Numbered from the stretch's first letter, positions 2,629-21,326 are shown. The stretch is DNA of 36,252 bases from Candidatus Parcubacteria bacterium (GCA_025999395.1 AP024682.1:135386-171637); one strand, 5' to 3'. Notes: generated by a model not told the origin, from the sequence alone. Numbers and translations: made by a program.

Positions 2629-2687
2629 ATTTTGAATTTATCACTTCACCAGGAAGTTTAAGGAGGCTAAAATTAAAATTTTCGGGC

Positions 2688-7724: not shown

Positions 7725-8528
7725 ATGGGGCGAAAATTAGGTCAGCATTTTTTAAAAGATAAAAACGTTTTAAGAAAGATTGTTTCGGTTTTGGATTTAA
7801 AGGATGGTGATATTGTTTTAGAAATTGGAGCGGGCCATGGGGAGTTAACTAAAGAAATTCTTGCTGCCGGAAAAAAAATAAAATTAATTGCGGTAGAAAA
7901 AGATAAAAAGCTGATAGAGTGTTTAAGGAAAGATTTTCCTTCCGCTTCTTTCCCCAATCTTTTAATTCTTGAGGAAGACATTCTTAAAATTATTTCCTCT
8001 CAAGACTTCTTTATACAAGAGAAAATTAATAAGGTTGTAGGTAATATCCCCTATTATCTCACCGGCTATCTTCTAAGAAAGATAAGCGAGCTTGAAAGGA
8101 AGCCTTCTTTGATAGTTTTTCTTCTCCAGAAAGAGGTGGCTTTGCGAATTTGCGCTCAACTCCCAAAGATGAATCTTTTGGCGGCAAGTATTCAGTTTTG
8201 GGCGGATCCTCGAATTTTGTTTTTGGTTAAAAGAGGAAGTTTTTCTCCTCTTCCTCAAGTGGAGTCGGCGGTAATTTCTTTGAAAACTAAAAAATTAGCT
8301 CTAAATAGAAAAAGTTTCTTGAAAGCAAAAGAGTTTTTTAATTTTATTAGAGTTCTTTTCAAGCAACCTCGCAAAACTATCGTTAATAATCTAATGGCGG
8401 GTGGGTATCCGAGAGAAAAAATCCTTTCCTCGCTTTCTTCTTTAGGATTAAAGGAAAATCTTCGTCCTCAGCAATTGTCTTTAAATTTAATTTTGGATTT
8501 ATTGAAGAGAATTTCCGAAGAAAATTAA
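7725..8528 (+). CDS. rsmA: 16S rRNA (adenine1518/1519-N6)-dimethyltransferase RsmA/KsgA
   Basis: The N-terminus is GQHFLKDKNVLRKIV...VLEIGAGHGELTKEIL (SAM-binding motif), followed by VGNIPYYLT. The length (267 aa) fits the family. Confidence 0.92.
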   Translation: MGRKLGQHFLKDKNVLRKIVSVLDLKDGDIVLEIGAGHGELTKEILAAGKKIKLIAVEKDKKLIECLRKDFPSASFPNLLILEEDILKIISSQDFFIQEKINKVVGNIPYYLTGYLLRKISELERKPSLIVFLLQKEVALRICAQLPKMNLLAASIQFWADPRILFLVKRGSFSPLPQVESAVISLKTKKLALNRKSFLKAKEFFNFIRVLFKQPRKTIVNNLMAGGYPREKILSSLSSLGLKENLRPQQLSLNLILDLLKRISEEN

Positions 8529-8569: not shown

Positions 8570-8578
8570 TGATATAAT
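8570..8578 (+). promoter_or_regulatory. Candidate extended -10 promoter element (TGaTATAAT) in front of the T4SS-like gene block
   Basis: tgatataat at 8570-8578 lies 28 nt upstream of ATG 8606, in the only sizeable gap (77 nt) between rsmA and the block. No good -35 element is present. This is a pattern match only. Confidence 0.4.
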
Positions 8579-8605
8579 TTATTGAAGTTAAAAACTTCTT
8601 AGAAG

Positions 8606-9499
8606 ATGCTGAAAATAAATTACAAAAATCCTTTTTTTGTTTTTGGGGTTATTGTTGTCCTATTTTTTGGTTCTTGGTTATTTTTGGGCTCGAAGAAAAA
8701 TTTGTCTTTTCAAGAAAACAACTCCTTTTTTGAAGAGGAAAAAAACTCTGCTAAACCGGAGGTTAATTTTAATGCAGGGAAGGGAAGCTCTTTAAAATGG
8801 ATAGAAGAATTAAATCCCAATTCTTCTGACTTGAAAAGTTCCGATTCTGATTTTAGATCTTCAACGGGAAACAATAATTCTTTAAATTTAACTGATCTAG
8901 TTTCTCAAAATCTTGCCTCGGAATTTCTTTCCAAGGTTGATTTTTCTCAAATTAAAAAATCTCCCAAAAATTTTACTCAGCAACTCCAGTCAATTAATTT
9001 GGACTCTTTTGATGTGGAAAAAATTTTGAAGGAAAATCCTCTGGGCTTTGTTCGAGATATTAAAGAAATTGACGAAACTCAGCTTAAAATAATTCAAGAT
9101 AATTCTTTAGAAACTATTCAAAAATATGGTCGAGAATACGGCCTTATTTTTTCTCAAGCAGGAGGAAGTCTGGCAAATGATTTAGATAAATTTGGTGACT
9201 TACTTTTAAATCCGGAAAGTCCTCAGAATTCTAGTCAGCTAAAACAAATTATCTCTGATTTAAAACAGGGAGAGGAAAAGTTAAAGAACTTGCCGGTTCC
9301 TAGCGGTCTCGTCTCTTTTCATAAAAGAACTTTAGCTTTTATAAAAAACTCTCTTGTTTTTCTGGAAGCAATCGTTACTGGTGAAGACGATCCGGTGCGT
9401 GCCTACTTGGCAGTTAAAGATGGATTTTCTATAATTTCTTCAGATGTTAACTATTTAGATAGGGAATTTAAAAAGCTTTCTCAACGGTACAATTTTTAG
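8606..9499 (+). CDS. Hypothetical bitopic membrane protein; first gene of the T4SS-like block
   Basis: 297 aa with an N-terminal TM segment FFVFGVIVVLFFGSWLFLG, a Ser/Asn-rich linker and a C-terminal domain of about 150 aa. I recognise no family. It ends 3 nt before the next gene. Confidence 0.55.
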   Translation: MLKINYKNPFFVFGVIVVLFFGSWLFLGSKKNLSFQENNSFFEEEKNSAKPEVNFNAGKGSSLKWIEELNPNSSDLKSSDSDFRSSTGNNNSLNLTDLVSQNLASEFLSKVDFSQIKKSPKNFTQQLQSINLDSFDVEKILKENPLGFVRDIKEIDETQLKIIQDNSLETIQKYGREYGLIFSQAGGSLANDLDKFGDLLLNPESPQNSSQLKQIISDLKQGEEKLKNLPVPSGLVSFHKRTLAFIKNSLVFLEAIVTGEDDPVRAYLAVKDGFSIISSDVNYLDREFKKLSQRYNF

Positions 9500-9502
9500 T
9501 TT

Positions 9503-11089
9503 ATGAAAGATTTTTTTCAAAAATTAGTTTCCCTTTTTATTCTTTTTTCTTTGTTGGCGGAATTTTCCTTGGCTCTTTTTCTTGTTAAACCAAAAGTAGC
9601 AGAAGCATCATGGCCTTCTTTTGAAGTTGGTAGCGTCCCAGAATTTATAAGCTTGCTTTGGGAAAAAGCTCAGGCTGTTTGGGATGCGCTAGATAAAAAA
9701 TATCGTGACTTAATTGTCCGCATCATTATTATGAAAATGCAGCAGGACATTGTTAAATCTATTGAGGAAGGGAGCTTATATGTTTCTGATTGGGGAAGTT
9801 TTTTAAAGGAAAACGTCGCTAATGTTGCTTTTGATGAGTTTAATAATTATATAAAAGGAGTATCGGAGGGAAAAATAGATTTGTGTAATCCTTTTAGTGT
9901 CCAAGCGCTCACTTTTTCTGTCCAAGCTTCTCTGGGGATGGTGGGTGTTACTAATAAACCTTATTATGGTTTACCAATAAGTTGTACCTTCGATGAATTT
10001 AAAGCTAATTTGCAAAATATTTCTAGTCTGATTGAAAGAGGCGGATGGGTTTCTTTGGATATAGCCTTTTCTCCTGATGTTAATCCATATTTGTTTTCTT
10101 GGAAAGTTCAGGATTCTTTTTTGAAAAAATTTGGAGAAGAGAAAGAAAAAAGAAAATCTGAGGCTGAGTCTTCGGGAGGATTTTTGGGTCAGAAAACGTG
10201 TTTAGCAAGCAGGGATGGAAGAACGCGTGAAGAGATAGTGGCTTTTTGTAGTGGAAGAGATGCTAATGGGAATCCAGAATATAAAGCTCAAGGATTTAAC
10301 AGTGTAAGCGAATGTGTTGAGGGTCTATTAAGAGATCAAGCGATAGGAGGGGGTTGCGCTCAGGAGGGCATTCTTACTCCGGGCCAAATGGTTTCTGATG
10401 CAATTATGGAGGCGATGGGAGGGGATTTTGATTATTCAGCTAATGTCCAAAGTGCGATCGCGGCGATTGTCAATGCTATTGTAGCTAAAATGATAAGAGA
10501 AGGACTCTCTTCTGGTTCAAAGGGAGGAAATTCTTATGGAGTGGAGAGCGGAGATTTGGCGGGTACTGGATTTGAAGATTTCGAAGGAAGTAGATTTAAA
10601 CAGGATTTAGAAGATGCTCAACAAAAGTATCAGGAAATAATTACTTATTTAGAGCAGGATTTGATTCCAGCTACCGATCAAATTTTGTCGCTTATTCAAT
10701 CCAAAAATTTGGAGGATCCTAATTGTTCGGTAAGAAATATGCAGGTTGAAGTAGACGAAGGAGGGGGGACAAAGAAGATTTATACTGTTGCTGAATTAGT
10801 TGATTTAGTTAAAAATTTGAATGCCGTTGCTCTTCAAGCTAAAACAGAAGCTGAAGCAAATAAAAACGAAATTGATTCTTTGTTAAGTCAGGAAAATCCT
10901 CCACAAACTGAGGTAGTGAATGCTTTAAATAAACTCTCCTCCTTTGAAAGAAATTATCAGATTATTGTTCAGGATGTTGAGTTGGTTAACGGTGGCCAAG
11001 AGAGCAATCTTTTGCTGATGCTTTCTAATATTTATGCTGTTTTATCAAGGGACGATATTAATTGTTCAACATCTCAACCAACTCCCTAA
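9503..11089 (+). CDS. Hypothetical secreted Cys-containing protein with C-terminal coiled-coil regions
   Basis: 528 aa. The signal-peptide-like N-terminus is LFILFSLLAEFSLALFLVKPKVAEA followed by SW. Several spaced Cys residues are present. Heptad-like helical stretches include QDLEDAQQKYQEIITYLEQDL and ALQAKTEAEANKNEIDSLLSQ. I recognise no family. Confidence 0.6.
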   Translation: MKDFFQKLVSLFILFSLLAEFSLALFLVKPKVAEASWPSFEVGSVPEFISLLWEKAQAVWDALDKKYRDLIVRIIIMKMQQDIVKSIEEGSLYVSDWGSFLKENVANVAFDEFNNYIKGVSEGKIDLCNPFSVQALTFSVQASLGMVGVTNKPYYGLPISCTFDEFKANLQNISSLIERGGWVSLDIAFSPDVNPYLFSWKVQDSFLKKFGEEKEKRKSEAESSGGFLGQKTCLASRDGRTREEIVAFCSGRDANGNPEYKAQGFNSVSECVEGLLRDQAIGGGCAQEGILTPGQMVSDAIMEAMGGDFDYSANVQSAIAAIVNAIVAKMIREGLSSGSKGGNSYGVESGDLAGTGFEDFEGSRFKQDLEDAQQKYQEIITYLEQDLIPATDQILSLIQSKNLEDPNCSVRNMQVEVDEGGGTKKIYTVAELVDLVKNLNAVALQAKTEAEANKNEIDSLLSQENPPQTEVVNALNKLSSFERNYQIIVQDVELVNGGQESNLLLMLSNIYAVLSRDDINCSTSQPTP

Positions 11090-11104
11090 TTCATTGCTTG
11101 ATTT

Positions 11105-13384
11105 ATGACGGAATTATTTAAAAAAAATAACAAAAAAGAAAAAAATCGGTTTTTTTGGCGGAAATCTCAGAAAATTATCCTCTTAATTCTCTTAATTTAT
11201 TTATCACTAGGGTTTTATCAAATAGCAGAGGCTCAGTCAGCAATTTTAGGTCTCGGCAGTGCCGCTTTAAGGTTTGTTCTCAACCTCTTAACTTTTGCTA
11301 TTGGAGCGTTTCATTGGTTTGTGGGGGCGGTTCTTTTTAAATTTGCCGGGCTTACTTTGAATTTTGCTTTCAATGTTAATTTAAATCTTCTCTCGGATTT
11401 GAACGAAAATCATTTTATTCTAATCGGTTGGACTATTTTTAGAGATTTAGCTAATTTGGGCTTTGTTTTCGGGATTATAGTAATTGCAGTAGCTACGATC
11501 CTAAGATTTAAGAGTTATACCTATCAGACGCTATTACCTAAATTTATCGCCGCTGCTCTTTTAGTAAATTTTAGCTTAGTAATTGCTTCTTCTATTATTA
11601 GTCTTTCAGATGTTTTCTCTAACTTTTTTATTTCTTCTTCCAGCAACGGTTCGATTGATGCTTTAGCTAGAAAGATTGTAGATAAGAGTATGGTTATTAG
11701 AATTATAGAAGGAGGGCCCTCTGAAGAGGAAGAAAATCTGATGATAGAAAGCATACCAGATCAATCTGAAATAAATGAAATAAAAAAGAAAGATGAAAGC
11801 GGACTTTCTATTGTTTTTTATGAATTTGGAGGGGTTCTTGTTTCAACCTTGGTGATGTTTTTTGTTTTTATTACCCTTTTGACTATGGCTCTCTACTTAA
11901 TTCTAAGATACTTTAATCTAGCTTTTTTGCTTATTCTTTCTCCGATAGTTTGGATTTTATGGGTTTTTCCTGCTACCTCTGGCTATTGGAAAAAATGGTG
12001 GCAATCTTTTATTCACTGGGTTTTTATGCCTCCTCTTATTCTTTTTTTCATTAACATAACTCTAGTATTTTTAAGTGGAAGTGATGGTGGTTTTGGTTCG
12101 CGAGCCAAAGAGGTTGTTTCTTCTGCTCAATCAGGGAGTATTGCTGGGATTGGGTTTGAAAATTTAATGCTTCCCTTAATGGCAGGAGCGCTTCTTTTAG
12201 GAGGATTAAAGATTTCTCAAACAATGGGATTTGCGGGGGCGTCGTTTGTACTAAACAGGGCTGAAACATGGGGAAAACGGGTTAGTGGATGGGCCAAAGG
12301 AAAAGCAGAGAGAGCTGGCTATAGGGTTGCACGAGTCCCAGGGAAAGCCATCGGTAAAGCTGGAGAATGGATTGCTAAAAAAACCGCTGGTTCTAAAATT
12401 GCAAAATGGACCGGTCTTCACGCTCTTGCCCGAGGAGGTGTAGCAGTTGGAGCCTTAGCAGAAAGAAAAGCTGCGGAGAGCTTTGAATATGCAAGAAAAA
12501 AATATTCTAAATATGACAAAAAGAGACTTCAATCTATAGCCGGAGCCGTTAGTGGGGTAGAAAAGCAAGCGGTAGTTTCTCTTCTGCAAGAACGTGATTG
12601 GTTAGATAAGGAGACCATCGCAAGACTTGGCGGGAAAAGAGAGATTCTTAAAATGAAATCCGACTACGAAAAATGGGGTAAGGGTAAAGAATTTGGAGAG
12701 ATCGAAAAATCATTTGGAGTTTCTGCAAAGATTCAAGATAAAATCGATGAAGCTGCATCCAAACTTTCTAAAGGGGCGATAACTTTTAATAAGGCTGTGG
12801 AGGATTTAAGTGAAGCAACCAGAGAATTTGTTAGTAAGCTTAGTGATGCTGATTGGAGAAAGGTTGGAAAGGGTTTATTTGGTAGAAATCCTGACGAAAT
12901 GGCTGATTTAAGCGATGGAGAAAGAGCATATCTTGCTAGTGTTGCTAAAGAAATAAATCAGGATCCATCAGGTAAGAGATTTTATAGAGTAGCTTCTCGA
13001 TTAGAAGGAGAGCAGATGTACGAGTATGCCGCTACATTATATATGAATTTGGAAAATCTTTTGCCTGGGGTGGATAGGCATTTTGTCGCAACCGAATTGA
13101 ATAAAGCAAGAAATGCTTATAAAACGGGTAATAGGGATCAAGCGCTTGAAATTTATTCAAATCTAGTTCAAAAAATTGTTGATGAATTCAAGGCTAATAG
13201 CAAGACTCTTACTCCAGAGCAAAAAAGATTGTATGAAAGAATAAAAAAGTCAATAATAAGTGATGCTTTGGGGTCTGCATACGGAGGCCCTCCTCCATCT
13301 TCTGCTCCAAGTGCTGGTGGCGGAGGAGGTGCTGCTGGAGGGGGTGCTGCCGGAGGGGGCGCGGGTGGAGGCTCTACCCCGTAA
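11105..13384 (+). CDS. VirB6/TrbL-like polytopic membrane protein with a long hydrophilic C-terminal domain and a Gly/Ala tail
   Basis: 759 aa. There are about 8-9 hydrophobic helices in aa 20-385, then about 370 aa of Lys/Glu/Ala-rich soluble sequence ending in GGPPPSSAPSAGGGGGAAGGGAAGGGAGGGSTP. The architecture and the position immediately before PrgI/VirB4 genes match VirB6/TrbL/PrgH-type channel components. The assignment rests on architecture and context, not on a recognised motif. Confidence 0.6.
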   Translation: MTELFKKNNKKEKNRFFWRKSQKIILLILLIYLSLGFYQIAEAQSAILGLGSAALRFVLNLLTFAIGAFHWFVGAVLFKFAGLTLNFAFNVNLNLLSDLNENHFILIGWTIFRDLANLGFVFGIIVIAVATILRFKSYTYQTLLPKFIAAALLVNFSLVIASSIISLSDVFSNFFISSSSNGSIDALARKIVDKSMVIRIIEGGPSEEEENLMIESIPDQSEINEIKKKDESGLSIVFYEFGGVLVSTLVMFFVFITLLTMALYLILRYFNLAFLLILSPIVWILWVFPATSGYWKKWWQSFIHWVFMPPLILFFINITLVFLSGSDGGFGSRAKEVVSSAQSGSIAGIGFENLMLPLMAGALLLGGLKISQTMGFAGASFVLNRAETWGKRVSGWAKGKAERAGYRVARVPGKAIGKAGEWIAKKTAGSKIAKWTGLHALARGGVAVGALAERKAAESFEYARKKYSKYDKKRLQSIAGAVSGVEKQAVVSLLQERDWLDKETIARLGGKREILKMKSDYEKWGKGKEFGEIEKSFGVSAKIQDKIDEAASKLSKGAITFNKAVEDLSEATREFVSKLSDADWRKVGKGLFGRNPDEMADLSDGERAYLASVAKEINQDPSGKRFYRVASRLEGEQMYEYAATLYMNLENLLPGVDRHFVATELNKARNAYKTGNRDQALEIYSNLVQKIVDEFKANSKTLTPEQKRLYERIKKSIISDALGSAYGGPPPSSAPSAGGGGGAAGGGAAGGGAGGGSTP
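13328..13372 (+). repeat. In-frame GC-rich tandem 15-nt repeat (ggtgctgctggaggg / ggtgctgccggaggg / degenerate ggcgcgggtggaggc) encoding GAAGG-GAAGG-GAGGG
   Basis: Read directly from the sequence. It sits at the extreme 3' end of the VirB6-like gene and contrasts strongly with the AT-rich surroundings. Confidence 0.75.
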
Positions 13385-13418
13385 TAATAACTAATAATTT
13401 AGTCAATGTTATTGCATT

Positions 13419-14435
13419 ATGTATTACGCTAGTCAAAAAGAGATATTGGAGAGATGGAAAAATATTCCTGAAATCTTGAAAGACGCTATAAATTCCGAAT
13501 CACTTATTGGCGAAATTGAAAAATTATCCTCGAATTTCGGGTTGAATGAGGATAGACTTTTAAACCTTTTAAGGATTGTTCGAGGAGTTTTTTTAGGTTT
13601 TATCCATCTTCAGGATTTGTATAAGGAAATAAAAGAATCTTTAAACATTGATCCAAGGCTGGCTTTGGATATTTATCATCAGTTAGAGCAAAAGATTTTT
13701 TCTCCTTTCCGAAAAGAGATTGAAGAGGTTTATTTAAAGTTTCAAGTAGGAGCAATTGAGCCTCATCAAGTTGAGGAACCCGCTGTCGGTCCTTCTCAGG
13801 TTATTTTAAAAAAAGAAGAGGAAGATTTAACCTTAAATCTTAAGCCAACCGAAGCCGTGTCAAAACCCGCTCTTGAAGAAAGGCCAGAGGAGGTAAAAAA
13901 GGTAGAAGCAGAGGAAATAAGTAAAAAAGATTTAGCTGAGCCCAAGCCTCAAATTATTTCTTCAGAAACAATTAAGCCAGAAACTCAAATCGAAGAAACA
14001 AAAACAGCTACTCAAGCTAAAGAGGTTTCTCAAGAAGAAAAGAAACCCTCGGCAGAAACTCAAGAGGGCCCGGTAATTATTCATCAGGAAGCAGAGTCGC
14101 TTACTCAAAGTAAAGCTACGGATAAATTTAGGATGATTTCTTTTGGAGGTTTTCAGGGAGCGTTTAAGAACCCTCCTTTCTCTTCCAAAACCCAAGAGTT
14201 GTCTTCTCAGGCTACCATCGAAACTCCTATTACTTTAAAAAAGGAACCAGAAGAAAAAGGAAAAATTCCTGTAGTAATAAAAAAATACGACAGCTCACCC
14301 TCTAAAACTGTTCACATTAGCACCTTTAAGACTGATTTAAAGCCAAAGGATAAGGAGGAAAAAGAAAGTATTGATCAGCAAAACCCTTCTCATCCCCAAG
14401 AACCTCAACAAACAATCGATCTTTCTAAATTGTGA
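13419..14435 (+). CDS. Hypothetical soluble protein: folded N-terminal domain of about 110 aa plus a long Lys/Glu/Pro/Thr-rich disordered region
   Basis: 338-aa ORF with no hydrophobic segment. The composition from about aa 115 onward is low complexity (EEPAVGPSQ..KPTEAVSKPALEERPEEVKKVEAEE..ETKTATQAKEVSQEEKKPSAETQEG). I recognise no family. Confidence 0.5.
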   Translation: MYYASQKEILERWKNIPEILKDAINSESLIGEIEKLSSNFGLNEDRLLNLLRIVRGVFLGFIHLQDLYKEIKESLNIDPRLALDIYHQLEQKIFSPFRKEIEEVYLKFQVGAIEPHQVEEPAVGPSQVILKKEEEDLTLNLKPTEAVSKPALEERPEEVKKVEAEEISKKDLAEPKPQIISSETIKPETQIEETKTATQAKEVSQEEKKPSAETQEGPVIIHQEAESLTQSKATDKFRMISFGGFQGAFKNPPFSSKTQELSSQATIETPITLKKEPEEKGKIPVVIKKYDSSPSKTVHISTFKTDLKPKDKEEKESIDQQNPSHPQEPQQTIDLSKL

Positions 14436-14479
14436 TAAAATTCTTTTGGTGGCTTTTTGTATTTTTAATTTAATTTACT

Positions 14480-15010
14480 ATGGCTCAGTTTGAAGTCCCT
14501 CAATTTATAGATGTAGAAAGTAAAATTGTTGGTCCCCTTACTTTAAAGCAGTTTGCGTTTATTGCGGTGCCGGGGCTAATTTCTTTCTTTCTCTTTTTCA
14601 TCTTAGCCCGATTTATTTGGGTAATAGTTTCTTTTGTTTTAATTGTAACGGGAATTCTTTTTGCTTTTATAAAAATTAATGGACGCCCTCTTTATTTACT
14701 AACTTTTTACGCTTTTCAATTCTTTTGGAAACCCAAGGTTTATCTTTGGAAGAGGGCAATTGTAGAAGAAGAAATTGTTGTTCCAACAGCAGTAGTTAAT
14801 GCTCAAAGAAATTCTCTAAAAGATAGAGCCGCTGGAATTTATAGCAGCGTCTCCAAACTTTGGCAAAACTTGACTACTTCTAAAAATCCTATTCCTCAAA
14901 GAGAAAAATCAGTTCCCAAAAAATCAATCGCTGAGATTAAGGAGCAGTATATGGTCTTTCGCAAACTTACCGGTGAGCGCGAAGTAGCCAAAAGAGTTGA
15001 TTATCGGTAG
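14480..15010 (+). CDS. PrgI-family (VirB3-like) small membrane protein
   Basis: The N-terminus MAQFEVPQFIDVESKIVGPLTLKQFAFIAVPGLISFFLFFIL is followed by a second TM segment (FIWVIVSFVLIVTGILFAFI). This is the pattern of PrgI-family proteins that precede VirB4 in Gram-positive-type T4SS loci. At 176 aa it is longer than typical family members. Confidence 0.65.
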   Translation: MAQFEVPQFIDVESKIVGPLTLKQFAFIAVPGLISFFLFFILARFIWVIVSFVLIVTGILFAFIKINGRPLYLLTFYAFQFFWKPKVYLWKRAIVEEEIVVPTAVVNAQRNSLKDRAAGIYSSVSKLWQNLTTSKNPIPQREKSVPKKSIAEIKEQYMVFRKLTGEREVAKRVDYR

Positions 15011-15086
15011 TTTGAAAAGAGCCTGTCTTAATAATTCTTCTTTTTATTTTTTTAAGACGATCGTTTTATGTTATAATAACCAAACT

Positions 15087-15782
15087 ATGGCTGAAAAAGA
15101 CGAAAAAACAACAGAAAGGGTAATTCTTCCTCCCAATTCTACTCAGCAGTTTGTTGATGTTGAAAAGATTAAGGACGGAGTAGTTTTTTTGAAAGATGGC
15201 TCCTTAAGAGCGGTTTTAATGGTGGCGGGGATTAACTTTGAATTAAAATCAGAGGAGGAGCAAGACATTATTACTAATGCTTACCAAGATTTTCTTAATT
15301 CTTTGGATTTTTCTCTTCAGATTATTATTCATTCCCGAAAATTAAATATTGATAATTATTTAAAAAGAATGGAGGCTATTCGCTCGAAAGAGCCCAGTGA
15401 GCTTCTGCGAAATCAGATAGATGAATACATCTCTTTTATTAGAGAGTTTGTTAAACAAAATGAAATTATGACTAAAACTTTTTTTGTAGTGATTCCTTAT
15501 GAAGCTGGGGGAGCACAAGCTTTGAAAAAAGGGTTCTTTGATTTTTTGCCATTTTTAACTTCTAAGAAAAAAGCCTCAAACGCTCAAAAGGAAAGTCAAG
15601 AGCAAAGCATTATCCAGTTAAGACAAAGAGTAGAGCAGGTGGCAATAGGCTTAGAAAGAATTGGCTTAAGGGCGGTTCCTCTTAATGATGAAGAGTTGAT
15701 AGAGCTTTACTATAATCTTTATAATCCGGAAACCGTCGAAAAAGAACTACCTAAAAGTGAAAAGGAAGAAGTTTTATCTTAA
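15087..15782 (+). CDS. VirB4-family N-terminal domain encoded as a separate ORF
   Basis: TQQFVDVEKIKDGVVFLKDGSLRAVLMVAGINFELKSEEEQDIITNAYQDFLNSLDFSLQIIIHS matches the N-terminal region of full-length Gram-positive VirB4/TrsE-type ATPases. The track ORF starts at 14997, but its first 30 codons (MIIGSLKRACLNNSSFYFFKTIVLCYNNQT) read like intergenic sequence and overlap the previous gene. I therefore place the start at ATG 15087. Confidence 0.55.
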   Translation: MAEKDEKTTERVILPPNSTQQFVDVEKIKDGVVFLKDGSLRAVLMVAGINFELKSEEEQDIITNAYQDFLNSLDFSLQIIIHSRKLNIDNYLKRMEAIRSKEPSELLRNQIDEYISFIREFVKQNEIMTKTFFVVIPYEAGGAQALKKGFFDFLPFLTSKKKASNAQKESQEQSIIQLRQRVEQVAIGLERIGLRAVPLNDEELIELYYNLYNPETVEKELPKSEKEEVLS

Positions 15783-15815
15783 ATTATGAATGCTTAAACT
15801 AATTTTTATCTTTAT

Positions 15816-17570
15816 ATGGAAAATATAAAAATTGTAAAACCTTATTTGGGCGGAGAAGAAAAAGATACTCGAGATTTGATTGCTCCGGCAGCATTAGAGG
15901 TAAGCCAGAATCACATAAAAATCGGCAATAAGTTTGCTAAAACTCTATTTGTTTTTACTTATCCGCGTTATCTTTCTAGTGGTTGGTTTTCTTCTATTGT
16001 TAATGTAGCAAAACTTTTTGATATTTCTATTTTTGTTCACCCGGTGGATACAGCCTTAGCTTTAAGAAGGCTCCGCAAAAAAGCAGCTCAGATTGAGGCG
16101 GAAATTGCTGAAAGAGAATCCAAGGGATTTGTCCGTGATCCGATGTTAGAAACTGCTTTTGCTGATATCGAAGCTTTGCGGGACAATCTTCAGCAAGCTC
16201 GAGAGCGTCTTTTTGAGGTGGCGGTTTATATCACAATTTATGGTGATTCTTTGGAAAAACTAAACGAATTAGAAGAGTTAATCGTTAATCTTTTTGAAAG
16301 TAAACTTATTTATGTAAAGCCAGCCATTTTTCAGCAGATTGATGGATTTGTTTCTACTCTTCCCTTGTGTCAGGATAAATTAGCTATTCGGACTCCTCTT
16401 AATTCAGGACCCCTTTCTTCCTTTTTCCCATTTGTTTCGATGGATTTAACCTCTGAGGAAGGGATTATGTATGGCATTAATCAGCATAATAATTCGCTAA
16501 TTATTTTTGATAGGTTTTCTTTGGAAAATGGGAATATGGTTGTTTTCGCTAAATCAGGAGGAGGTAAATCTTATGCTACTAAGTTGGAGATTTTGAGATC
16601 TTTAATGATTGGCACTGAAGTGATTGTTATTGACCCTGAAAACGAATACAAAAATCTTTGTGATACAGTGGGGGGAACTTACTTTAAAATTTCTCTTACT
16701 TCGGATCAGCACATTAATCCATTTGATATTCCAATTGTTCCCCAAGGAGAAGACCCGGCTGATGTTTTTCGATCACACATTCTTACTTTAACAGGACTTT
16801 TAAAGATAATGTTAGGCAATATTTCTGTTGAAGAAGAAGCAATTTTAGATAGAGCTTTAACTGAAACTTACGCTTCTCGAGACATTACCCCCGAAAATCC
16901 CAACTTTCTTAAATTAGAACCCCCCATTCTTTCTGATTTTGAGGCGGTTTTAAGAAATATGGAGGGCGGCCGCTCGATGGCTGATAAACTTTATCGCTTT
17001 ACTCAAGGAACTTATTCCGGATTCATTAATCAAAGAACCAATGTTGATATTACTAACCGGTTGGTAGTTTTCTCAATCCGAGATTTAGAGGAAGAGCTCA
17101 GACCAATTGCAATGTATGTTATTTTGAACTTTATTTGGAATTTAGTTCGTTCCGAATTAAAAAGAAGAATTTTGGTAGTGGATGAGGCTTGGGTAATGAT
17201 GAAATACCCGGAAGGAGCCGCCTTTCTTTTTGGATTAGCTAAAAGAGGAAGAAAATATTACTTAGGATTAACTACTATTACTCAGGAGGTGGAAGATTTC
17301 TTGAACTCTCCTTACGGAAAGCCGATTATTACCAACTCTTCTTTGCAATTGCTTTTAAAGCAAGCGCCCGCCTCTATTGATATTGTGGCTAAAACTTTCG
17401 GTTTAACTGAAGCCGAGAAAAATCTTCTTTTGGAAGCGAGTGTGGGAGAAGGGCTGTTTTTTGCCGGTCTTAAACATGTGGCTATTCAGGTGGTGGCTTC
17501 TTATTTTGAGGATAAAATTATTACTACCAAACCTCAACAGTTATTGGGAGAAGAAACGCCTTTAATTTAG
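15816..17570 (+). CDS. virB4: VirB4-family type IV secretion ATPase (middle and C-terminal ATPase domains)
   Basis: The sequence LIAPAALEVSQNHIKIGNKFAKTLFVFTYPRYLSSGWFSSIV...DISIFVHPVD is present. Walker A is AKSGGGKS (nt 16548-16571) and Walker B is RILVVDEAW. GLTTITQEVEDF follows. The gene sits directly after a PrgI-like gene. Confidence 0.85.
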   Translation: MENIKIVKPYLGGEEKDTRDLIAPAALEVSQNHIKIGNKFAKTLFVFTYPRYLSSGWFSSIVNVAKLFDISIFVHPVDTALALRRLRKKAAQIEAEIAERESKGFVRDPMLETAFADIEALRDNLQQARERLFEVAVYITIYGDSLEKLNELEELIVNLFESKLIYVKPAIFQQIDGFVSTLPLCQDKLAIRTPLNSGPLSSFFPFVSMDLTSEEGIMYGINQHNNSLIIFDRFSLENGNMVVFAKSGGGKSYATKLEILRSLMIGTEVIVIDPENEYKNLCDTVGGTYFKISLTSDQHINPFDIPIVPQGEDPADVFRSHILTLTGLLKIMLGNISVEEEAILDRALTETYASRDITPENPNFLKLEPPILSDFEAVLRNMEGGRSMADKLYRFTQGTYSGFINQRTNVDITNRLVVFSIRDLEEELRPIAMYVILNFIWNLVRSELKRRILVVDEAWVMMKYPEGAAFLFGLAKRGRKYYLGLTTITQEVEDFLNSPYGKPIITNSSLQLLLKQAPASIDIVAKTFGLTEAEKNLLLEASVGEGLFFAGLKHVAIQVVASYFEDKIITTKPQQLLGEETPLI

Positions 17571-17593
17571 TTTATCTAAGAAGCTAATAAATT

Positions 17594-18127
17594 ATGGCAG
17601 AAGAATTAAAAGAACAACAAGAGGGCCAGAAGAGTGCTGGTGGCCAAGATGGCTCCTCTCTGGAGGCTCAAAGTGAGCAATCAGAAAAACAAGCAGAAGA
17701 CGAAGAAGGTAGGAATGAGGAAGATGATGGAGAAGATAAAGAGGAAAGCGATGAAGAAATAGGTGGGCGGGAAGAAAATAATCCTCGATTTAATTTTGTT
17801 GAAATTATTTTTTTAGCCGGTTTAAACTTAATAGGAGATCTACTCGAACTTCTTGATTTATCAGGTTTTTTTATTTTTGTTGGTTTAATCGTGGATTTTT
17901 TTACTGGTCCCATTACTATAATCTACCTTTGGCTTAAAGGGATAAAAGGGGTAGTTGGTAAGAATGCTATTGCTCAAGTATCTGAATTTATACCTTTAAT
18001 TGATATCTTGCCAGTTAGGACGACCGCCATTGTTTTAACCATCATTGCTACCAATCATCCCGAATGGATTGAAAAAATTTCAGGTCATTCAGAATTAATT
18101 GGAAAAATTGCCAAAAAGTTTAAATAA
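17594..18127 (+). CDS. Hypothetical membrane protein with a highly acidic N-terminal head
   Basis: 177 aa. The first ~65 aa are Glu/Asp/Gln/Ser-rich (EDEEGRNEEDDGEDKEESDEE). Three or four hydrophobic helices follow (IIFLAGLNLIGDLL, FFIFVGLIVDFFTGPITIIYLWL, TTAIVLTIIA). I recognise no family. Confidence 0.5.
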   Translation: MAEELKEQQEGQKSAGGQDGSSLEAQSEQSEKQAEDEEGRNEEDDGEDKEESDEEIGGREENNPRFNFVEIIFLAGLNLIGDLLELLDLSGFFIFVGLIVDFFTGPITIIYLWLKGIKGVVGKNAIAQVSEFIPLIDILPVRTTAIVLTIIATNHPEWIEKISGHSELIGKIAKKFK

Positions 18128-18172
18128 TAAATAACTCGATTAATTTAAAGAAATAAAGAAACAAGAGAAAAA

Positions 18173-18202
18173 ATGACAGAGATATTTTTTTTGAGTTATA
18201 AT
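18173..18202 (+). promoter_or_regulatory. Candidate sigma70-like internal promoter (ATGACA-18 nt-TATAAT)
   Basis: atgaca at 18173-18178 and a perfect tataat at 18197-18202 lie 18 nt upstream of ATG 18220, in a 92-nt gap inside the T4SS-like block. This is a pattern match only. Confidence 0.35.
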
Positions 18203-18219
18203 ATTTAGTAGAAGAACTT

Positions 18220-18951
18220 ATGACCACCTTATTTTCTAAAAAACTCTGGCTGGTAATAGGAATTTTTGGGGGACTTTTATTTTTTTCAATAAGAGATACT
18301 AGAGCTGCTGAGCCACTCTTCGTTTTTTCTTGGAAAGCACTTAACTTTGCCCCTTCTTGGTATCAAGGAAAAATTTTACCAGTTAATCAAACAAAAATTG
18401 TCGTTTCTTTTGAGGCGATAAGCACCAATAAGTCTGATTATGGAAAGGTTTTAGATCTTTCAAATAGAAATATAATCTGGTATGTTAACGGAGAAAAATT
18501 AACTCAGGGTAGGGGGTTGCAACAAGTTGTTATTACTAAGGATAATTTTCCTCATGATGCTTTGGAGGTAAACATACGAGGAGAATATTTTGATACTGAC
18601 CTTACTTCTCTTCAAAATACCCCCTCTCTTTATAACAAACGTTTTTACATTCCAATTACTGAACCAGAGGCAGTTTTAAGCTATAAGAAAAATGATAATT
18701 ATTTTACTGTGGGAGAGGTGGCAAACTTTAATTTGTTCCCCTTCTTTTTTAATGCCTCTGATAATTTTCTCAAAGTGAATTGGAGGGTTAATAATTCTTG
18801 GATTCAGCCTTCGAATGACAATGAGTTTTCTTTGAAGTTAGAAATTGCTGATATTCCTCCGAGTGGTTATGTAACTCTTGTTGGAGCGGTGTATAATTTA
18901 AAAAACAAGCTAGAAAATTCTTCAAAAAGTATCACCTTCAATGTTCGTTAA
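18220..18951 (+). CDS. Hypothetical secreted or anchored protein that appears to contain two tandem beta-rich (Ig-like) modules
   Basis: 243 aa. The N-terminal signal or anchor is LWLVIGIFGGLLFFSIRDTRAAEP. Two segments of about 100 aa follow with alternating hydrophobic/polar beta-strand-like patterns. I recognise no family. Confidence 0.55.
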   Translation: MTTLFSKKLWLVIGIFGGLLFFSIRDTRAAEPLFVFSWKALNFAPSWYQGKILPVNQTKIVVSFEAISTNKSDYGKVLDLSNRNIIWYVNGEKLTQGRGLQQVVITKDNFPHDALEVNIRGEYFDTDLTSLQNTPSLYNKRFYIPITEPEAVLSYKKNDNYFTVGEVANFNLFPFFFNASDNFLKVNWRVNNSWIQPSNDNEFSLKLEIADIPPSGYVTLVGAVYNLKNKLENSSKSITFNVR

Positions 18952-18991
18952 TTTTATTTTAAATTGTTAATTGTTAGAATAGAATGCATTT

Positions 18992-20002
18992 ATGATTTTA
19001 GGATTTAAAAAATTTTTTCTCTTTCTTCTCTTAATTGTTTCTTTATTCAATCTTCTCTTTTGGGTAGATGATGTTTTAGGGGAAAATTCGACTTTCACTT
19101 TAAGTTATCCAGATTTTGCTAATCCCAAAGAAACAAAATCCCCCGCGGAATTTCTTAATAAATTTTATCTTTACGCCTTGGGCATTTCTAGTGCTTTGGC
19201 AATAATGATGATTGTTTATGGAGGAGTAAAGTATGCGGTAAATCCGGGAAACACCGCTAATCAATCAGAAGCAAGAGATATCATCAAAAACGCCGTTTTT
19301 GGTATCGTTTTGCTGGCTGGGGCTTATTTAATTTTAAAAACCATAAATCCCTCACTAGTGAATTTGGGCAATCCACAACTAAAAAAAATAGAATCAGAGG
19401 CAAGCTCTTCTACGGGCGATATACTCAATAAAAAGTTTATTCAATTCTTAGCTAGCCAGTTAATTGGATTTGCTCCTCAAACCGACGGTGAATGTGGCTT
19501 GGGGACAGGTGCGCGAGGTGTTTTGCAAGATATAATAGATGGCAAAAATCCAAAGGTTTGTTTTAATGGTTGCAAAAGACAAACTGGTCAATGTTCTCCG
19601 GCTGATTCTTCTGTTATTTCTAATCTTGAAAATACTCTTCAGAAGTTATTAAAGGCTTATGATGTGATTGGTTGGTGCAAAGACAACCCCACACTTTGTA
19701 CTAATTATATCTATTTGAGAGACATCAGTTCAGAGCGAAGCGTACAGATTACCAGCATTACAGGAGGAGATCACTCTCCCAACTCTCTTCATTACGCGGG
19801 GAGAGCTGTTGATTTGATTATTTCTGGAGAAAACTATCATGTTTGGAATAATGTAGTAAGGGTTTTTCGAGACAATGGAGCGACAAGGGTTTTTTGCGAA
19901 GACCCCTCAGCTCCTGCTGGACAGAAACAAAAATCTAATTGTGAGGATATTTTTGTTAACGGGAGATTAAAACCGGGAGGGCATATTCATGTTGAATATT
20001 AA
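18992..20002 (+). CDS. T4SS pilin-like (VirB2/TrbC-type) two-helix module fused to a Cys-rich LAS/peptidase-M15-like zinc hydrolase domain
   Basis: The protein has a signal or anchor (FFLFLLLIVSLFNLLFWV). The pilin-like module is FYLYALGISSALAIMMIVYGGVKYAVNPGNTANQSEARDIIKNAVFGIVLLAGAYLILKTINP. The C-terminal ~190 aa carry 8 Cys. SLHYAGRAVD (nt 19784-19813) is an exact SxHxxGxAxD match. A terminal HIH (nt 19982-19990) supplies the HxH zinc-ligand motif of M15/VanY-type peptidases. Confidence 0.65.
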   Translation: MILGFKKFFLFLLLIVSLFNLLFWVDDVLGENSTFTLSYPDFANPKETKSPAEFLNKFYLYALGISSALAIMMIVYGGVKYAVNPGNTANQSEARDIIKNAVFGIVLLAGAYLILKTINPSLVNLGNPQLKKIESEASSSTGDILNKKFIQFLASQLIGFAPQTDGECGLGTGARGVLQDIIDGKNPKVCFNGCKRQTGQCSPADSSVISNLENTLQKLLKAYDVIGWCKDNPTLCTNYIYLRDISSERSVQITSITGGDHSPNSLHYAGRAVDLIISGENYHVWNNVVRVFRDNGATRVFCEDPSAPAGQKQKSNCEDIFVNGRLKPGGHIHVEY

Positions 20003-20057
20003 TATTTGATATTAACACCTATCTTTTTCTTTAGCAAATAATCAAATCTTTGTTTTT

Positions 20058-21326
20058 ATGCTTAATAACAAATCAGGAGAGAAAATTACTTTGATTTTAA
20101 TAATATTAGTTGTTGCTATTGGAGTAGGTGTTTATTTTGCTCTGAGATCATCGAAAATTTCAATAACTAATCAACAACAGGGGGGCCAGTCATTTTCAAC
20201 TCCATATTCATCCAGAGAAAGAAGTGGAGAGGAGGTTCTTTCGACTTCTTCAGAAAAATCATTTCTTGATACTTATGAAGAAGAAGACATAACTTTGACT
20301 GGAAATAAAGCCAAACTTGTTATTTTAGTAGATGGAGCTGTAAGCGGTTTTTGGGTAGCTTCTCAGCCAAAAGAAGAAGGAAGTCAAAACCAACTCCTAC
20401 TTTCTGATATTTTTTACCTTAATGAAAAAGGAGAAATTTTTAAGCTTAAAGAACCTAATCAAGCAGAATCAATTGCCAGCTCTTCTTTTGGTCGGCCCTT
20501 AAGAGTTATCCAAAACAATCAGGGTGATAGAGTGGCGGTTCAATTTGATTCTGGAACGGTGGCTTTATTTGATGTAAAAGCAAAATCTTGGCAGGAGCTG
20601 GGAGGAAAGGAAATTACTGATATCAGCTTTTCTCCTGATGGGAAAAAGGTAGCTTTTTTGAAAGAGGAAATAAAAGAAAGTGATGTTAAAACTTCTATCT
20701 TTATTAAAGATTTATCTAGTTCTAAGCAACCGCTTACCTTGGTAGCTTCTCTTAAAATTGTTGATTTTAATCTTTTATGGCCGGAAAATAACTCTTTATT
20801 TCTCTTGCCTAAGCCTTCCTACTTTTTCCGCGGTCAAGCTTGGAAGGTTGATTTGAAATCAAAGACAATTACTTGGCTGACAGCCGGTAATGGATACTCT
20901 TTGCTTTTTTCTTCCCTTGCTAATCTTGGTTTGCAATTTACTTCAGCCGAAAAGAAATCGGAGATGTCAGTAACGGTGGTGGATAGTAATCTTAAAAAAT
21001 TAGCCGATCTTTCTTTCTCTACCTTTAAAGAAAAATGCGCTTTTTCTTCTTCTGAAAAAGAAGTGGCTTACTGCGCCGTTCCCTATTTTGCTAATAAAAC
21101 CTCTGATCTTACCTTACCAGACGATTTTTACAAAAAGGGAGTTTATTTTAAAGATAGGATTTATAAAATTGACTTAAAGAATTCAGTGGTTGAGTCGATT
21201 TTCAATTTAGAGGATGTTAGTTTGGATGCTATTTATCTTAAGGAAAAGAACCAACAGCTCTTCTTTATTAATCGCTACGATGATAAACTTTATCTTTATG
21301 ATTTTTCTGAGAAAGTGAGTGAATAG
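20058..21326 (+). CDS. Hypothetical membrane-anchored protein with a probable beta-propeller (TolB/PD40-like) ectodomain
   Basis: 422 aa with an N-terminal TM segment ITLILIILVVAIGVGVYFAL. It has repeated beta-strand blocks, including a PD40-like ISFSPDGKKVAFL. The fold assignment is tentative. Confidence 0.55.
   Translation: MLNNKSGEKITLILIILVVAIGVGVYFALRSSKISITNQQQGGQSFSTPYSSRERSGEEVLSTSSEKSFLDTYEEEDITLTGNKAKLVILVDGAVSGFWVASQPKEEGSQNQLLLSDIFYLNEKGEIFKLKEPNQAESIASSSFGRPLRVIQNNQGDRVAVQFDSGTVALFDVKAKSWQELGGKEITDISFSPDGKKVAFLKEEIKESDVKTSIFIKDLSSSKQPLTLVASLKIVDFNLLWPENNSLFLLPKPSYFFRGQAWKVDLKSKTITWLTAGNGYSLLFSSLANLGLQFTSAEKKSEMSVTVVDSNLKKLADLSFSTFKEKCAFSSSEKEVAYCAVPYFANKTSDLTLPDDFYKKGVYFKDRIYKIDLKNSVVESIFNLEDVSLDAIYLKEKNQQLFFINRYDDKLYLYDFSEKVSE

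Follow-up and report, generated by a model that had tools for sequence, protein, structure and literature searches.

A chromosomal T4SS locus beside rsmA in a Candidatus Parcubacteria bacterium: component anatomy, strain-level variation and a probable role in host contact

Gene content and layout

The window analysed here, a stretch of 36,252 nucleotides (36 kb) from a Candidatus Parcubacteria bacterium, contains a genuine T4SS locus at 8606-21326. It comprises 11 co-directional open reading frames (ORFs) on the plus strand, all intact and separated by intergenic gaps of 3-92 nt, in the order g1-g2-VirB6-g4-PrgI-TrsD-VirB4-g8-g9-pilin-g11 (Table 1). A first-pass annotation of the same DNA had placed a block of twelve genes between rsmA and a histidine kinase followed by mutM and pyrG; ORF reading confirms the place and the strand, but yields 11 genes. 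The neighbours are indeed housekeeping genes, and the base composition of the block equals that of its flanks (GC 0.32-0.41 across the window). All four T4SS hallmarks named in that annotation (VirB6/TrbL-like, PrgI, VirB4 and VirB2-type pilin) are supported by profile searches, with PrgI, T4SS_pilin and CD1110-type VirB4 scoring above curated cut-offs and the VirB6-like protein supported indirectly. Its statement that the remaining genes match nothing known holds for g1, g2, g4, g8 and g9, but not for g11, which carries a TolB/WD40-like beta-propeller.

Table 1. Features of the T4SS block and its immediate flanks
Feature	Coordinates	Strand	Description	Basis
rsmA	7725-8528		Upstream flank	
g1	8606-9499	+	297 aa; N-terminal membrane anchor, low-complexity linker, ~200-aa domain	Sequence features
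g2	9503-11089	+	528 aa; signal peptide (AEA|S), mostly helical secreted protein	Alignment, AF2
g3	11105-13384	+	759 aa; "extended" VirB6/TrbL_3-like polytopic membrane protein	Precomputed and sub-threshold profiles, AF2 and Foldseek
g4	13419-14435	+	338 aa; conserved ~110-aa N-terminal domain, then long E/K/P-rich disordered region	Sequence features
PrgI	14480-15010	+	PrgI/VirB3-family membrane protein	Pfam PF12666
TrsD-like	15087-15782	+	Detached VirB4 N-terminal domain	TraC_F_IV, TrsD and conju_CD1110 profiles
VirB4	15816-17570	+	ATPase; C-terminal two thirds of CD1110-type VirB4	conju_CD1110, P-loop_TraG
g8	17594-18127	+	177 aa; acidic disordered N-terminus and 2-3 TM helices, membrane subunit	Sequence features
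g9	18220-18951	+	243 aa; signal peptide and two beta-rich repeats	Sequence features
g10	18992-20002	+	336 aa; signal peptide, VirB2-type T4SS pilin hairpin, predicted C-terminal LAS zinc peptidase	PF18895, profile match
g11	20058-21326	+	422 aa; N-terminal membrane anchor and TolB/WD40-like beta-propeller; last gene of block	Profile match
Histidine kinase	21341-22672		PAS-HisKA; downstream flank, followed by mutM and pyrG	

The membrane motor

The membrane motor consists of a split VirB4 (a TrsD-like N-domain plus the ATPase), PrgI/VirB3 and the extended VirB6/TrbL_3 protein. The PrgI/VirB3-like identity proposed earlier is upheld by PF12666 (E 3.8e-8; 34.2 bits against a gathering score of 27), and the protein, which has a TM hairpin at residues 20-68 and would tether VirB4 to the membrane, lies directly 5' of TrsD in 74 of 80 related loci and is 98.3% identical between strains.

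VirB4 had been read as one gene spanning 15087-17570, whereas two TAA stop codons in this frame, at 15780 and 15795, divide the interval into two. The two products cover complementary parts of the 752-position conju_CD1110 profile, 2-121 for the TrsD-like protein and 183-733 for the ATPase. The former also matches Pfam TraC_F_IV over positions 15-176 and NCBIfam TrsD (NF041427, E 9e-11, under the curated cut-off); it is annotated in public records as a 231-aa gene and is separate from VirB4 in 73 of 77 related loci, an in-frame fusion occurring only in locus L011. The identification of VirB4 itself, with a Walker A motif AKSGGGKS and a Walker B motif VVDEAW legible in the sequence, is sustained by conju_CD1110 (375 bits against a cut-off of 325) and P-loop_TraG (1e-29). 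Its top NCBIfam models are CD1110 and Mycoplasma ICE VirB4, which score far over the MPF_T and MPF_F models, and CedB matches it weakly (E 1.5e-12). Homologues 57-90% identical to VirB4 were found in 212 relatives, nearly all of them, like the 80 best, titled Patescibacteria/CPR MAGs. The motor is under very strong purifying selection, with dN/dS values of 0.01 for VirB4 and 0.05 for PrgI.

For g3, found in 61/80 loci, the earlier VirB6/TrbL-like assignment is borne out indirectly, by sub-threshold or precomputed profiles and a Foldseek match of E 0.09. TrbL_3 (PF19590) is precomputed on many g3 homologues, including a 99.5%-identical protein (L084) at E<=1e-5; sub-threshold TrbL matches come from 9 of 46 orthologues as well as from P0073, P0103 and P0045; and an NCBIfam CD3337/EF1877 mobilome membrane protein model matches g3 at E 1.4e-4. 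In the AF2 model (pLDDT 80.7), a helical TM bundle (~50-340) precedes an alpha-solenoid-like C-terminal domain (~450-725) and a Gly/Ala-rich tail. The highest-probability Foldseek matches of this model in the PDB are R388 TrwI/VirB6 structures (probability 0.87-1.0, TM 0.40-0.44, weak E-values), among them TrwI at probability 1.0, TM 0.41 and E 0.09.

Pilin, propeller and proteins of unrecognised fold

The first-pass annotation had described g10 as a VirB2-type pilin joined to a cell-wall hydrolase-like domain, and both halves of this description are retained. The pilin module, a hairpin of residues ~49-123, matches T4SS_pilin (PF18895) over residues 49-117 (E 3.8e-10; 40.1 bits against a gathering score of 26.6), and the C-terminal domain appears from its sequence to be a LAS (hedgehog/DD-peptidase, M15-like) zinc peptidase. 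Residues H135, H141, D148 and H205 of this domain are invariant in 10 orthologues, and its profile matches the Zn site of the Sonic hedgehog N-domain (E 3.3e-6) and, weakly, L-Ala-D-Glu peptidase and DD-carboxypeptidase. The pilin module is present in 42/42 orthologues, whereas the C-domain can be made out in just some 10 close relatives, four loci (L005, L006, L008 and L010) having it in duplicate. Searches of the block with Pfam and NCBIfam profiles for a VirB1-type wall hydrolase gave no SLT, CHAP or lysozyme match, the LAS peptidase being found instead. The propeller protein g11, with a TM segment at residues 5-34, matches a WD40 protein (2ymu, 3.7e-16), TolB (4e-10 to 1e-8) and the Dpp5 propeller (9e-6), and is the terminal gene of the block in 57/80 loci.

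Five conserved envelope or accessory proteins of the block have no known fold. The first, g1, has a single TM-like segment (residues 7-30) and a ~200-aa domain judged to be helical; no match was obtained in Pfam, NCBIfam or PDB sequences. By profile HMM it occupies the same position in 46/80 loci, and it is 96.6% identical in a same-species strain. The secreted protein g2, present in 43/80 loci, has six conserved cysteines (C128, C161, C233, C285, C408 and C521), and an exhaustive HMMER search returned 629 50%-cluster representatives at E<=1e-3. Its AF2 model (pLDDT 74.8, above 90 in the C-terminal bundle) gave nothing at E<=0.001 in Foldseek against the PDB, and neither Pfam nor PDB sequences matched; the fold is an orphan. 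Without a TM segment, and with short conserved motifs within its disordered region, g4 is likely a cytoplasmic accessory protein; it occurs in 47/80 loci, always between g3 and PrgI, and has no match in Pfam, NCBIfam or the PDB.

The membrane subunit g8 lies directly 3' of VirB4 in 21/80 loci and carries the conserved motif KNAIAQ..ELIP..LP.ST....T..TNHPE; it matches no family or PDB entry, and hhalign shows no relation to the pilin module. The product of g9, whose signal peptide suggests a secreted or wall-associated protein, is found in 33/80 loci and is 57% identical between same-species strains. Its two repeats, with the alignment motifs SWKA..YAP.WY.GK and PFFFN...W.VNG, are probably Ig-like sandwiches, and the only profile hints, BiPBP_C and SAG-like, were weak. 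As regards a VirB8-like (NTF2-fold) protein, comparison of g1, g2, g8, g9 and g11 with PrgL and with VirB8-like chains in the PDB showed no resemblance in sequence or profile, and none of the pCF10 Prg proteins matched the orphan families in hhalign; a relative by fold alone may nonetheless exist among g1, g8 and g9.

Conjugation genes

Profile and repeat searches confirm the earlier claim that T4CP, VirB11, relaxase, integrase, replication gene and direct repeats are absent from the 36 kb. Profile searches of the ORFs in the window gave no T4CP (VirD4/TcpA) and no relaxase family; an oriT-like feature, VirB11, an integrase and a replication gene are likewise lacking within 36 kb, and the only repeats found there are of low complexity, with no att repeats flanking the block. 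Across the 80 loci, no relaxase and, by phmmer with pCF10 PcfC, no T4CP lies within 10 kb of virB4. The T4CP result holds for the 36 kb and not for the whole genome, where such a gene may lie at another site. Of 3,035 Patescibacteria genomes, 2,918 have VirD4 homologues, in most cases far away from virB4 (PMC12102498).

This distribution of VirD4 also favours a working conjugation or DNA-export system with T4CP and relaxase supplied in trans from elsewhere in the chromosome, mobilising chromosomal DNA between epibiont cells, as do the conjugative CD1110 type of VirB4 and frequent recombination around the locus in strain comparison. However, the same survey detected relaxases in just 103 of the 3,035 genomes, seldom close to virB4, and in Southlakia the T4CP is dispensable while the T4SS is essential (PMC12102498). 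Natural competence, demonstrated in Saccharibacteria, explains the recombination equally well, and with neither relaxase gene nor oriT-like feature in the 36 kb, we regard conjugation as very unlikely.

Conservation and strain-level variation

The block is colinear in 80 Paceibacteria loci with rsmA/ksgA adjoining upstream, and its order is kept at this chromosomal site in family- to class-level relatives. Decay of an integrative conjugative element or plasmid, with loss of relaxase, T4CP and integrase, could account for ancestry from monoderm conjugation machinery and for the lack of DNA-processing genes in the 36 kb, but is already contradicted by these synteny data and by selection on VirB4. 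Moreover, all 11 ORFs are intact, block and flank GC agree, neither integrase nor att repeats are found, and homologous loci are essential in Southlakia (PMC10633639), where T4SS genes including pilins, PrgI, TrsD and VirB6 are needed for epibiotic growth (PMC10633639, PMC12102498). Such a remnant is scarcely credible, and the earlier proposal of a domesticated chromosomal Gram-positive-type T4SS is favoured by the hallmark HMMs, the flanks, the lack of att repeats, the synteny and the VirB4 dN/dS.

The surface-exposed parts are markedly divergent among strains of a single species. Comparison of same-species strains reveals two hypervariable, recombining islands, at ~9300-13800 and ~17500-20300, flanking a nearly invariant motor. 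The sequences suggest that the exposed parts g2/g3 and g8/g9/g10 are swapped between strains as allelic cassettes, an exchange in keeping with a function in partner specificity or evasion.

Proposed machine and function

We consider it likely that the block is a vertically inherited chromosomal T4SS of the Patescibacteria VirB4 clade, derived from MPF_FATA/Gram-positive conjugation machinery and serving as a host-contact conduit, not for conjugation. In the proposed mechanism, VirB4, TrsD and PrgI would dock onto the VirB6 platform and power the extraction and assembly of pilin modules into a short pilus or channel across the monoderm wall. The LAS peptidase, as a functional analogue of VirB1, would open peptidoglycan locally and may also act on the host wall, while g1, g2, g9 and g11 would scaffold the wall-spanning part. 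The machine would link the epibiont to the host cell it depends on, as a contact-dependent conduit. Several points count against this reading: the sole pilin module of the locus carries a 210-aa C-terminal domain, which bears on its compatibility with pilus polymerisation, five subunits have no recognisable fold, no VirB8-like component was recognised, the VirB6 assignment has the indirect basis given above, and a T4CP may lie elsewhere in the genome.

As to the direction of transport through such a conduit, uptake of host macromolecules, at somewhat less than an even chance, is tentatively favoured over effector export, which is rated a little lower. An organelle solely for effector export or adhesion, attaching to the host and injecting proteins with no import role, is rather unlikely. 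Protein export is what most non-conjugative T4SSs do, Bordetella Ptl and Brucella VirB being injecting systems that have no T4CP, and the hypervariable exposed subunits resemble the antigenically variable adhesins and pilins of pathogens; protein export has also been suggested by Wang 2023 (PMC10633639). Conversely, the block holds no candidate effector or chaperone genes and no adjacent T4CP for substrate recruitment, epibionts need bulk host nucleotides and lipids, and in one cultivated member of the Microgenomatia tubular structures pierce the host cell and host RNA is imported via this interface (bioRxiv 10.64898/2026.06.21.733656). None of these points against export is decisive.

A more elaborate and distinctly doubtful version of the uptake reading would make the Paceibacteria T4SS a host-piercing feeding tube, with a VirB2-type filament whose LAS peptidase cuts host peptidoglycan and with g2/g3 and g8-g9-pilin/peptidase as two homologously recombined cassettes around the invariant motor, setting host strain range or evading host or phage recognition. 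If true, this would amount to surface cassette switching of a kind that, to our knowledge, has been described for no T4SS in monoderm bacteria.

Comparison with known systems

Helicobacter pylori ComB and the crenarchaeal Ced DNA importer are VirB4-type ATPase machines without a relaxase and offer precedents for inward transport; ComB differs as a diderm MPF_T system with VirB7-10 and Ced in its other membrane subunits, and homology with the present locus, for which import is hypothetical, is limited to the ATPase. With LAS zinc peptidases (hedgehog N-domain, VanX/VanY and M15 phage endolysins), the predicted g10 domain shares the Zn-ligand motif H-x6-D ... H-x-H in the context TGGxHxxxSxHYxGxAxD. 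Unlike them, it sits behind a T4SS pilin hairpin and is Cys-rich and extremely divergent, with alignment confined to the active-site stretch.

Gram-positive conjugation systems such as pCF10 share the CD1110-family VirB4 (375 bits), PrgI and TrsD, the local order VirB6 - VirB3 - (TrsD) - VirB4 - hydrolase, and a monoderm envelope without a VirB7/9/10 core. In contrast to them, the locus lacks a T4CP (PcfC), a relaxase, the surface adhesin PrgB and the VirB8-like PrgL, has a VirB2-type pilin that is absent from Gram-positive systems, and splits its VirB4.

Chromosomal relaxase-less T4SSs occur in almost all ultra-small CPR/Patescibacteria (Wang 2023 Cell, PMC10633639; Quinonero-Coronel 2025 Microb Genom, PMC12102498), and the domesticated, relaxase-less reading is the published view (PMC10633639, PMC12102498, PMC12857230), not a new one. 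The closest comparison is Southlakia epibionticum SEML1_0006-0019, which shares the chromosomal setting near ksgA/rsmA, a VirB4 with a separate TrsD gene beside it (and, for the present locus, with a probable place within MPF_FATA), PrgI/VirB3, VirB6 and a VirB2-like (PF18895) pilin, along with the lack of a relaxase, an adjacent T4CP and a recognisable VirB8. The two differ in that a single pilin module is here fused to a putative LAS peptidase, in place of the array of 2-11 free pilins of the Southlakia/Patescibacteria clade; in the wall hydrolase, here the LAS domain and in Southlakia lysozyme/peptidase genes 3' of virB4; and in the accessory set (g1, g2, g4, g8, g9 and the TolB-like propeller). 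Since the locus matches the described Patescibacteria T4SS clade, it adds one more example of a machine type already on record, with the layout of a Paceibacteria (Wolfebacteria-like) version, to which the present analysis adds a component-level anatomy and two hypervariable islands.

Locus organization and conservation

Eleven co-directional ORFs, separated by gaps of 3-92 nt, lie between rsmA/ksgA and a sensor kinase gene in the 36-kb window, along which the GC content stays at ~35% (Table). The first-pass annotation had recognised this tightly packed, same-strand block correctly, except that it counted twelve genes. Upstream, the housekeeping flank encodes a DksA-type zinc-finger protein, ComM, a UbiA prenyltransferase, and UvrD/PcrA, and the downstream flank encodes MutM, PyrG, HolA, S20, RuvA, a Mur ligase, two beta-CASP/RNase J enzymes, a LOG-like protein, an amino-acid permease, TrpS, and a cupin-type GPI. 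One tRNA-Leu gene is also present in the window. As initially claimed, no ORF of the window matched relaxase, T4CP, VirB11, integrase, or replication families, and no att-like repeats were detected in it, repeat searches giving AT-rich low-complexity matches only. The earlier view that the block sits among housekeeping genes and is no plasmid or ICE remnant agrees with flank annotation, synteny, and selection; on the last two grounds an ICE remnant was rejected. Since a promoter/terminator scan gave counts no higher than shuffled expectation, operon boundaries were not inferred.

Features of the T4SS block and selected neighbours in the window
Feature	Position (nt)	Strand	Characteristics
ORF	1073-2284		403 aa; no Pfam/NCBIfam match
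ComM	2610-4223		Competence-associated Mg-chelatase-like helicase
rsmA/ksgA	7725-8528		Upstream border of block
g1	8606-9499	+	Membrane-anchored; ectodomain helical-looking judged by sequence
g2	9503-11089	+	Signal peptide, six conserved cysteines
g3	11105-13384	+	VirB6-like (moderate certainty), by TrbL_3/TrbL matches of homologues and AlphaFold2 model
g4	13419-14435	+	Likely cytoplasmic protein, long disordered tail
PrgI	14480-15010	+	Above Pfam gathering score
TrsD-like	15087-15782	+	231 aa; matches TrsD, CD1110 N-part, and N-terminal part of Pfam TraC_F_IV
VirB4 ATPase	15816-17570	+	584 aa; NCBIfam conju_CD1110
g8	17594-18127	+	Small membrane protein with acidic head
g9	18220-18951	+	Secreted protein, two beta-rich repeats
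g10 pilin protein	18992-20002	+	T4SS_pilin (PF18895) module above threshold, residues 49-117
g11	20058-21326	+	Membrane-anchored TolB/WD40-type beta-propeller (WD40 protein 4e-16, TolB 4e-10)
Kinase	21341-22672		PAS-HisKA-HATPase; downstream border of block
PyrG	23702-25420		Glutamine amidotransferase domain of 258 residues

Relatives of VirB4, 212 among species-representative genomes, were nearly all titled Patescibacteria/CPR MAGs, the best of them belonging to Candidatus Wolfebacteria and Paceibacterota (88-90% identity). Searches with tblastn and profile HMMs revealed a single order, rsmA - g1 - g2 - g3 - g4 - PrgI - TrsD - VirB4 - (g8) - (g9) - pilin(s) - g11, in which the whole block is colinear across relatives that range from Wolfebacteria-like genomes to Moran-, Yanofsky-, and Portnoybacteria. 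The 'orphans' thus belong to the machine itself and are inherited with it. Evolutionary rates differ greatly between the block proteins: identity to L013, the closest genus-level relative, reaches 90% for VirB4 and 34-41% for g3, g8, and g10.

Several observations concern the flanks. The kinase gene starts 14 nt past the block and holds the same position in ~15 Wolfebacteria-like loci, with no response regulator in the surrounding 36 kb; its product could be a T4SS regulator or a mere neighbour. ComM is encoded 4.4 kb upstream of the block and is found near virB4 in a few other loci (L017, L025, L072, and L073), and competence and recombination genes have been reported near virB4 in class ABY1 (PMC12102498). 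The ORF at 1073-2284 encodes a conserved protein outside the T4SS block, 99.8% identical in a sister strain. The amidotransferase domain of PyrG exceeds its 190-position Pfam profile, which suggests an insertion of ~70 residues.

Motor components

The PrgI assignment was confirmed at its original position, whereas the adjacent VirB4 stands as an ATPase but not as a single gene: translation of 15087-17570 meets two in-frame TAA stops, and two ORFs result. The VirB4 ORF scores 375 bits against conju_CD1110 (cut-off 325), covering only positions 183-733 of 752, and the TrsD-like ORF covers positions 2-121 of the same model. An alternative genetic code was rejected as the source of the stops, because both are TAA, every other gene has an uninterrupted reading frame under table 11, and the two ORFs lie in different frames in relatives. 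TrsD and VirB4 are separate ORFs in 73 of 77 related loci, mostly in different frames; in three loci they overlap by 4-8 nt, and only in L011 (9224-11752) are they fused in frame, as an 842-aa protein, which supports TrsD as the detached N-domain of VirB4. The separate ORFs and the complementary CD1110 coverage show a conserved split VirB4, the same arrangement as the 1,664 reported cases of TrsD next to VirB4 (PMC12102498).

The VirB6/TrbL-like reading of g3 also held, with moderate certainty. Its protein had no significant Pfam match in a library search; however, a 99.5%-identical homologue from another strain has a precomputed TrbL_3 (PF19590) match (E<=1e-5), TrbL_3 is found on many homologues and TrbL on one, and TrbL falls just under threshold in nine of 46 orthologues and three database homologues. 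NCBIfam gave a weak match to the CD3337/EF1877 mobilome membrane protein. The AlphaFold2 model (101 sequences, pLDDT 80.7) predicts a helical membrane bundle with a confident C-terminal helical-repeat domain. Foldseek found no PDB match for it at E<=0.001, and the top hits by probability were TrwI/VirB6 chains of the R388 T4SS (0.87-1.00, TM 0.40-0.44). We regard g3, with moderate certainty, as an 'extended VirB6'. Its C-terminus (13290-13384) forms a Gly/Ala/Pro-rich tail (GGPPPSSAPSAGGGGGAAGGGAAGGGAGGGSTP) with pLDDT below 50 in the model.

Pilin, peptidase, and accessory subunits

In g10, the proposed VirB2-type pilin was confirmed, and the hydrolase-like domain joined to it could be assigned more closely. 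The C-terminal 210 residues form one domain, in which the invariant H135, H141, D148, and H205 lie within the motif TSxTGGxHxxxSxHYxGxAxD ... HIH. The invariant residues, together with profile matches to the zinc site of Sonic hedgehog N-domains (E 3e-6) and, weakly, to M15 L-Ala-D-Glu and DD-peptidases, identify it as a LAS-family zinc peptidase, likely the wall-opening enzyme of the system. Two tandem LAS copies are carried by the pilin proteins of four related loci (L005:13639-15483, L006:13098-14867, L008:13068-14813, and L010:13076-14812; 578-614 aa). Orthologues from more distant relatives are either bare pilins of 138-190 aa or pilins extended at the C-terminus by unrelated sequence.

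Among the proteins first described as matching nothing, g11 is a TolB/WD40 propeller, whereas g1, g2, g4, g8, and g9 remained unmatched. The g2 family is large, since exhaustive HMMER searching recovered 629 cluster representatives; a word-indexed search, with g2 alone or as a concatenated g1+g2 alignment, found only three proteins each. The AF2 model of g2 (pLDDT 74.8) is predicted to be mostly helical, and Foldseek gave no fold match, the VirB5-like fold that had been considered being absent from the 50 matches listed. For g1, g4, g8, and g9, no match to a family, to a PDB profile, or to a pCF10 protein emerged; PDB sequence-profile searches with these, g2, and g3 returned coiled-coil/low-complexity noise only, and in hhalign comparisons with the full set of pCF10 Prg/Pcf proteins plus two from Tn916, none of the orphan families reached 20% probability. 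A role of g8 as second pilin was dismissed because hhalign among the families showed signal-peptide or TM similarity only. The searches made thus show five conserved subunits without a known fold.

Strain-level hypervariable islands

The window was compared with two other strains of its species, L081 (GCA_026419535.1) and L084 (a Logan assembly). Relative to L081, protein identity is 97-100% in the flanks and the motor (VirB4 99.5%), whereas it drops to 84% in g2, 75% in g8, 57% in g9, 46% in g10, and 42% in g3. In these variable genes, dS ranges from 0.56 to above 2 (0-0.22 elsewhere) and dN/dS is below 0.45. The g10 C-domain of L081 is unalignable to that of the window but retains an H..H..D / HWH motif. 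A 500-nt sliding comparison delimited two islands, ~9300-13800 and ~17500-20300, covering g2-g3 and g8-g9-g10 on either side of the near-invariant PrgI-TrsD-VirB4 motor, which with the 3′ part of g4 forms a ~96% identical stretch between them.

Over both islands L084 matches the window at 99.8-100% identity, but its rsmA is less similar at the nucleotide level (96.3%, vs 99.4% in L081), and this incongruence indicates recombination. Combined with the raised dS and protein divergence, it argues for allelic cassette exchange: the exposed machine parts are deeply diverged alleles exchanged within the species. Such variation fits partner specificity or evasion. At 9300-9800, where g1 ends and g2 begins, the window is 87-88% identical in nucleotides to both other strains, which are 97.6% identical to one another; this 500-nt patch has the look of a small recombination tract, the third after the two islands.

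Proposed mechanism and role

The functional readings of this T4SS given here are inferred from homology and anatomy and from studies of distantly related organisms. A split VirB4 hexamer, tethered by PrgI on a VirB6 platform, would power extraction of pilin hairpins from the membrane to build a short filament or channel, the LAS peptidase would cleave peptide stems so that the structure passes through a wall, and the anchored propeller and secreted proteins may scaffold the extracellular part. Patescibacteria, which represent a substantial fraction of bacterial diversity, depend on hosts. This dependence, the lack of a relaxase or T4CP at hand, and essentiality in a relative make a contact-dependent conduit to the host the most likely role. 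As to what is transported, we lean towards uptake of host macromolecules, with effector export nearly as likely. ComB and Ced are precedents for uptake; in one cultivated member of the Microgenomatia, penetrating tubular structures and host RNA uptake have been described (2026 preprint, bioRxiv 10.64898/2026.06.21.733656).

Comparison with known systems

The window locus appears to resemble, point by point, the Patescibacteria T4SS of Quinonero-Coronel et al. 2025 (PMC12102498), in which VirB4 forms a monophyletic clade nested in MPF_FATA (2,417 of 3,035 genomes), TrsD, PrgI, VirB6, and VirB2-like pilins lie near virB4, relaxases are almost absent, T4CPs are rarely adjacent, and the loci are chromosomal, often adjoining ksgA. 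The homologous locus of Southlakia epibionticum, also without a recognisable coupling protein or relaxase, is essential for epibiotic growth by Tn-seq (Wang et al. 2023, PMC10633639), and a 2025 FEMS review ranks these systems as a distinct newcomer in the T4SS superfamily (PMC12857230). Given this agreement, the reading of a domesticated, non-ICE T4SS is right but already known, and the window leaves the published picture unchanged. Although essential in the one species tested, the system has a role called 'completely unknown' (PMC11665869), and the wider question is how Patescibacteria draw resources from their hosts. Within-species exchange of exposed T4SS alleles was not found described in the cited Patescibacteria T4SS literature, and the two recombining islands offer a concrete handle for metagenomic studies of how host range relates to T4SS alleles. 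The window shows the Paceibacteria layout cleanly and in full, and its newly assigned parts are the split VirB4, the pilin-borne LAS peptidase, and the propeller of TolB-like type; it is mainly of value for the component anatomy of that layout and its strain-level cassette variation.
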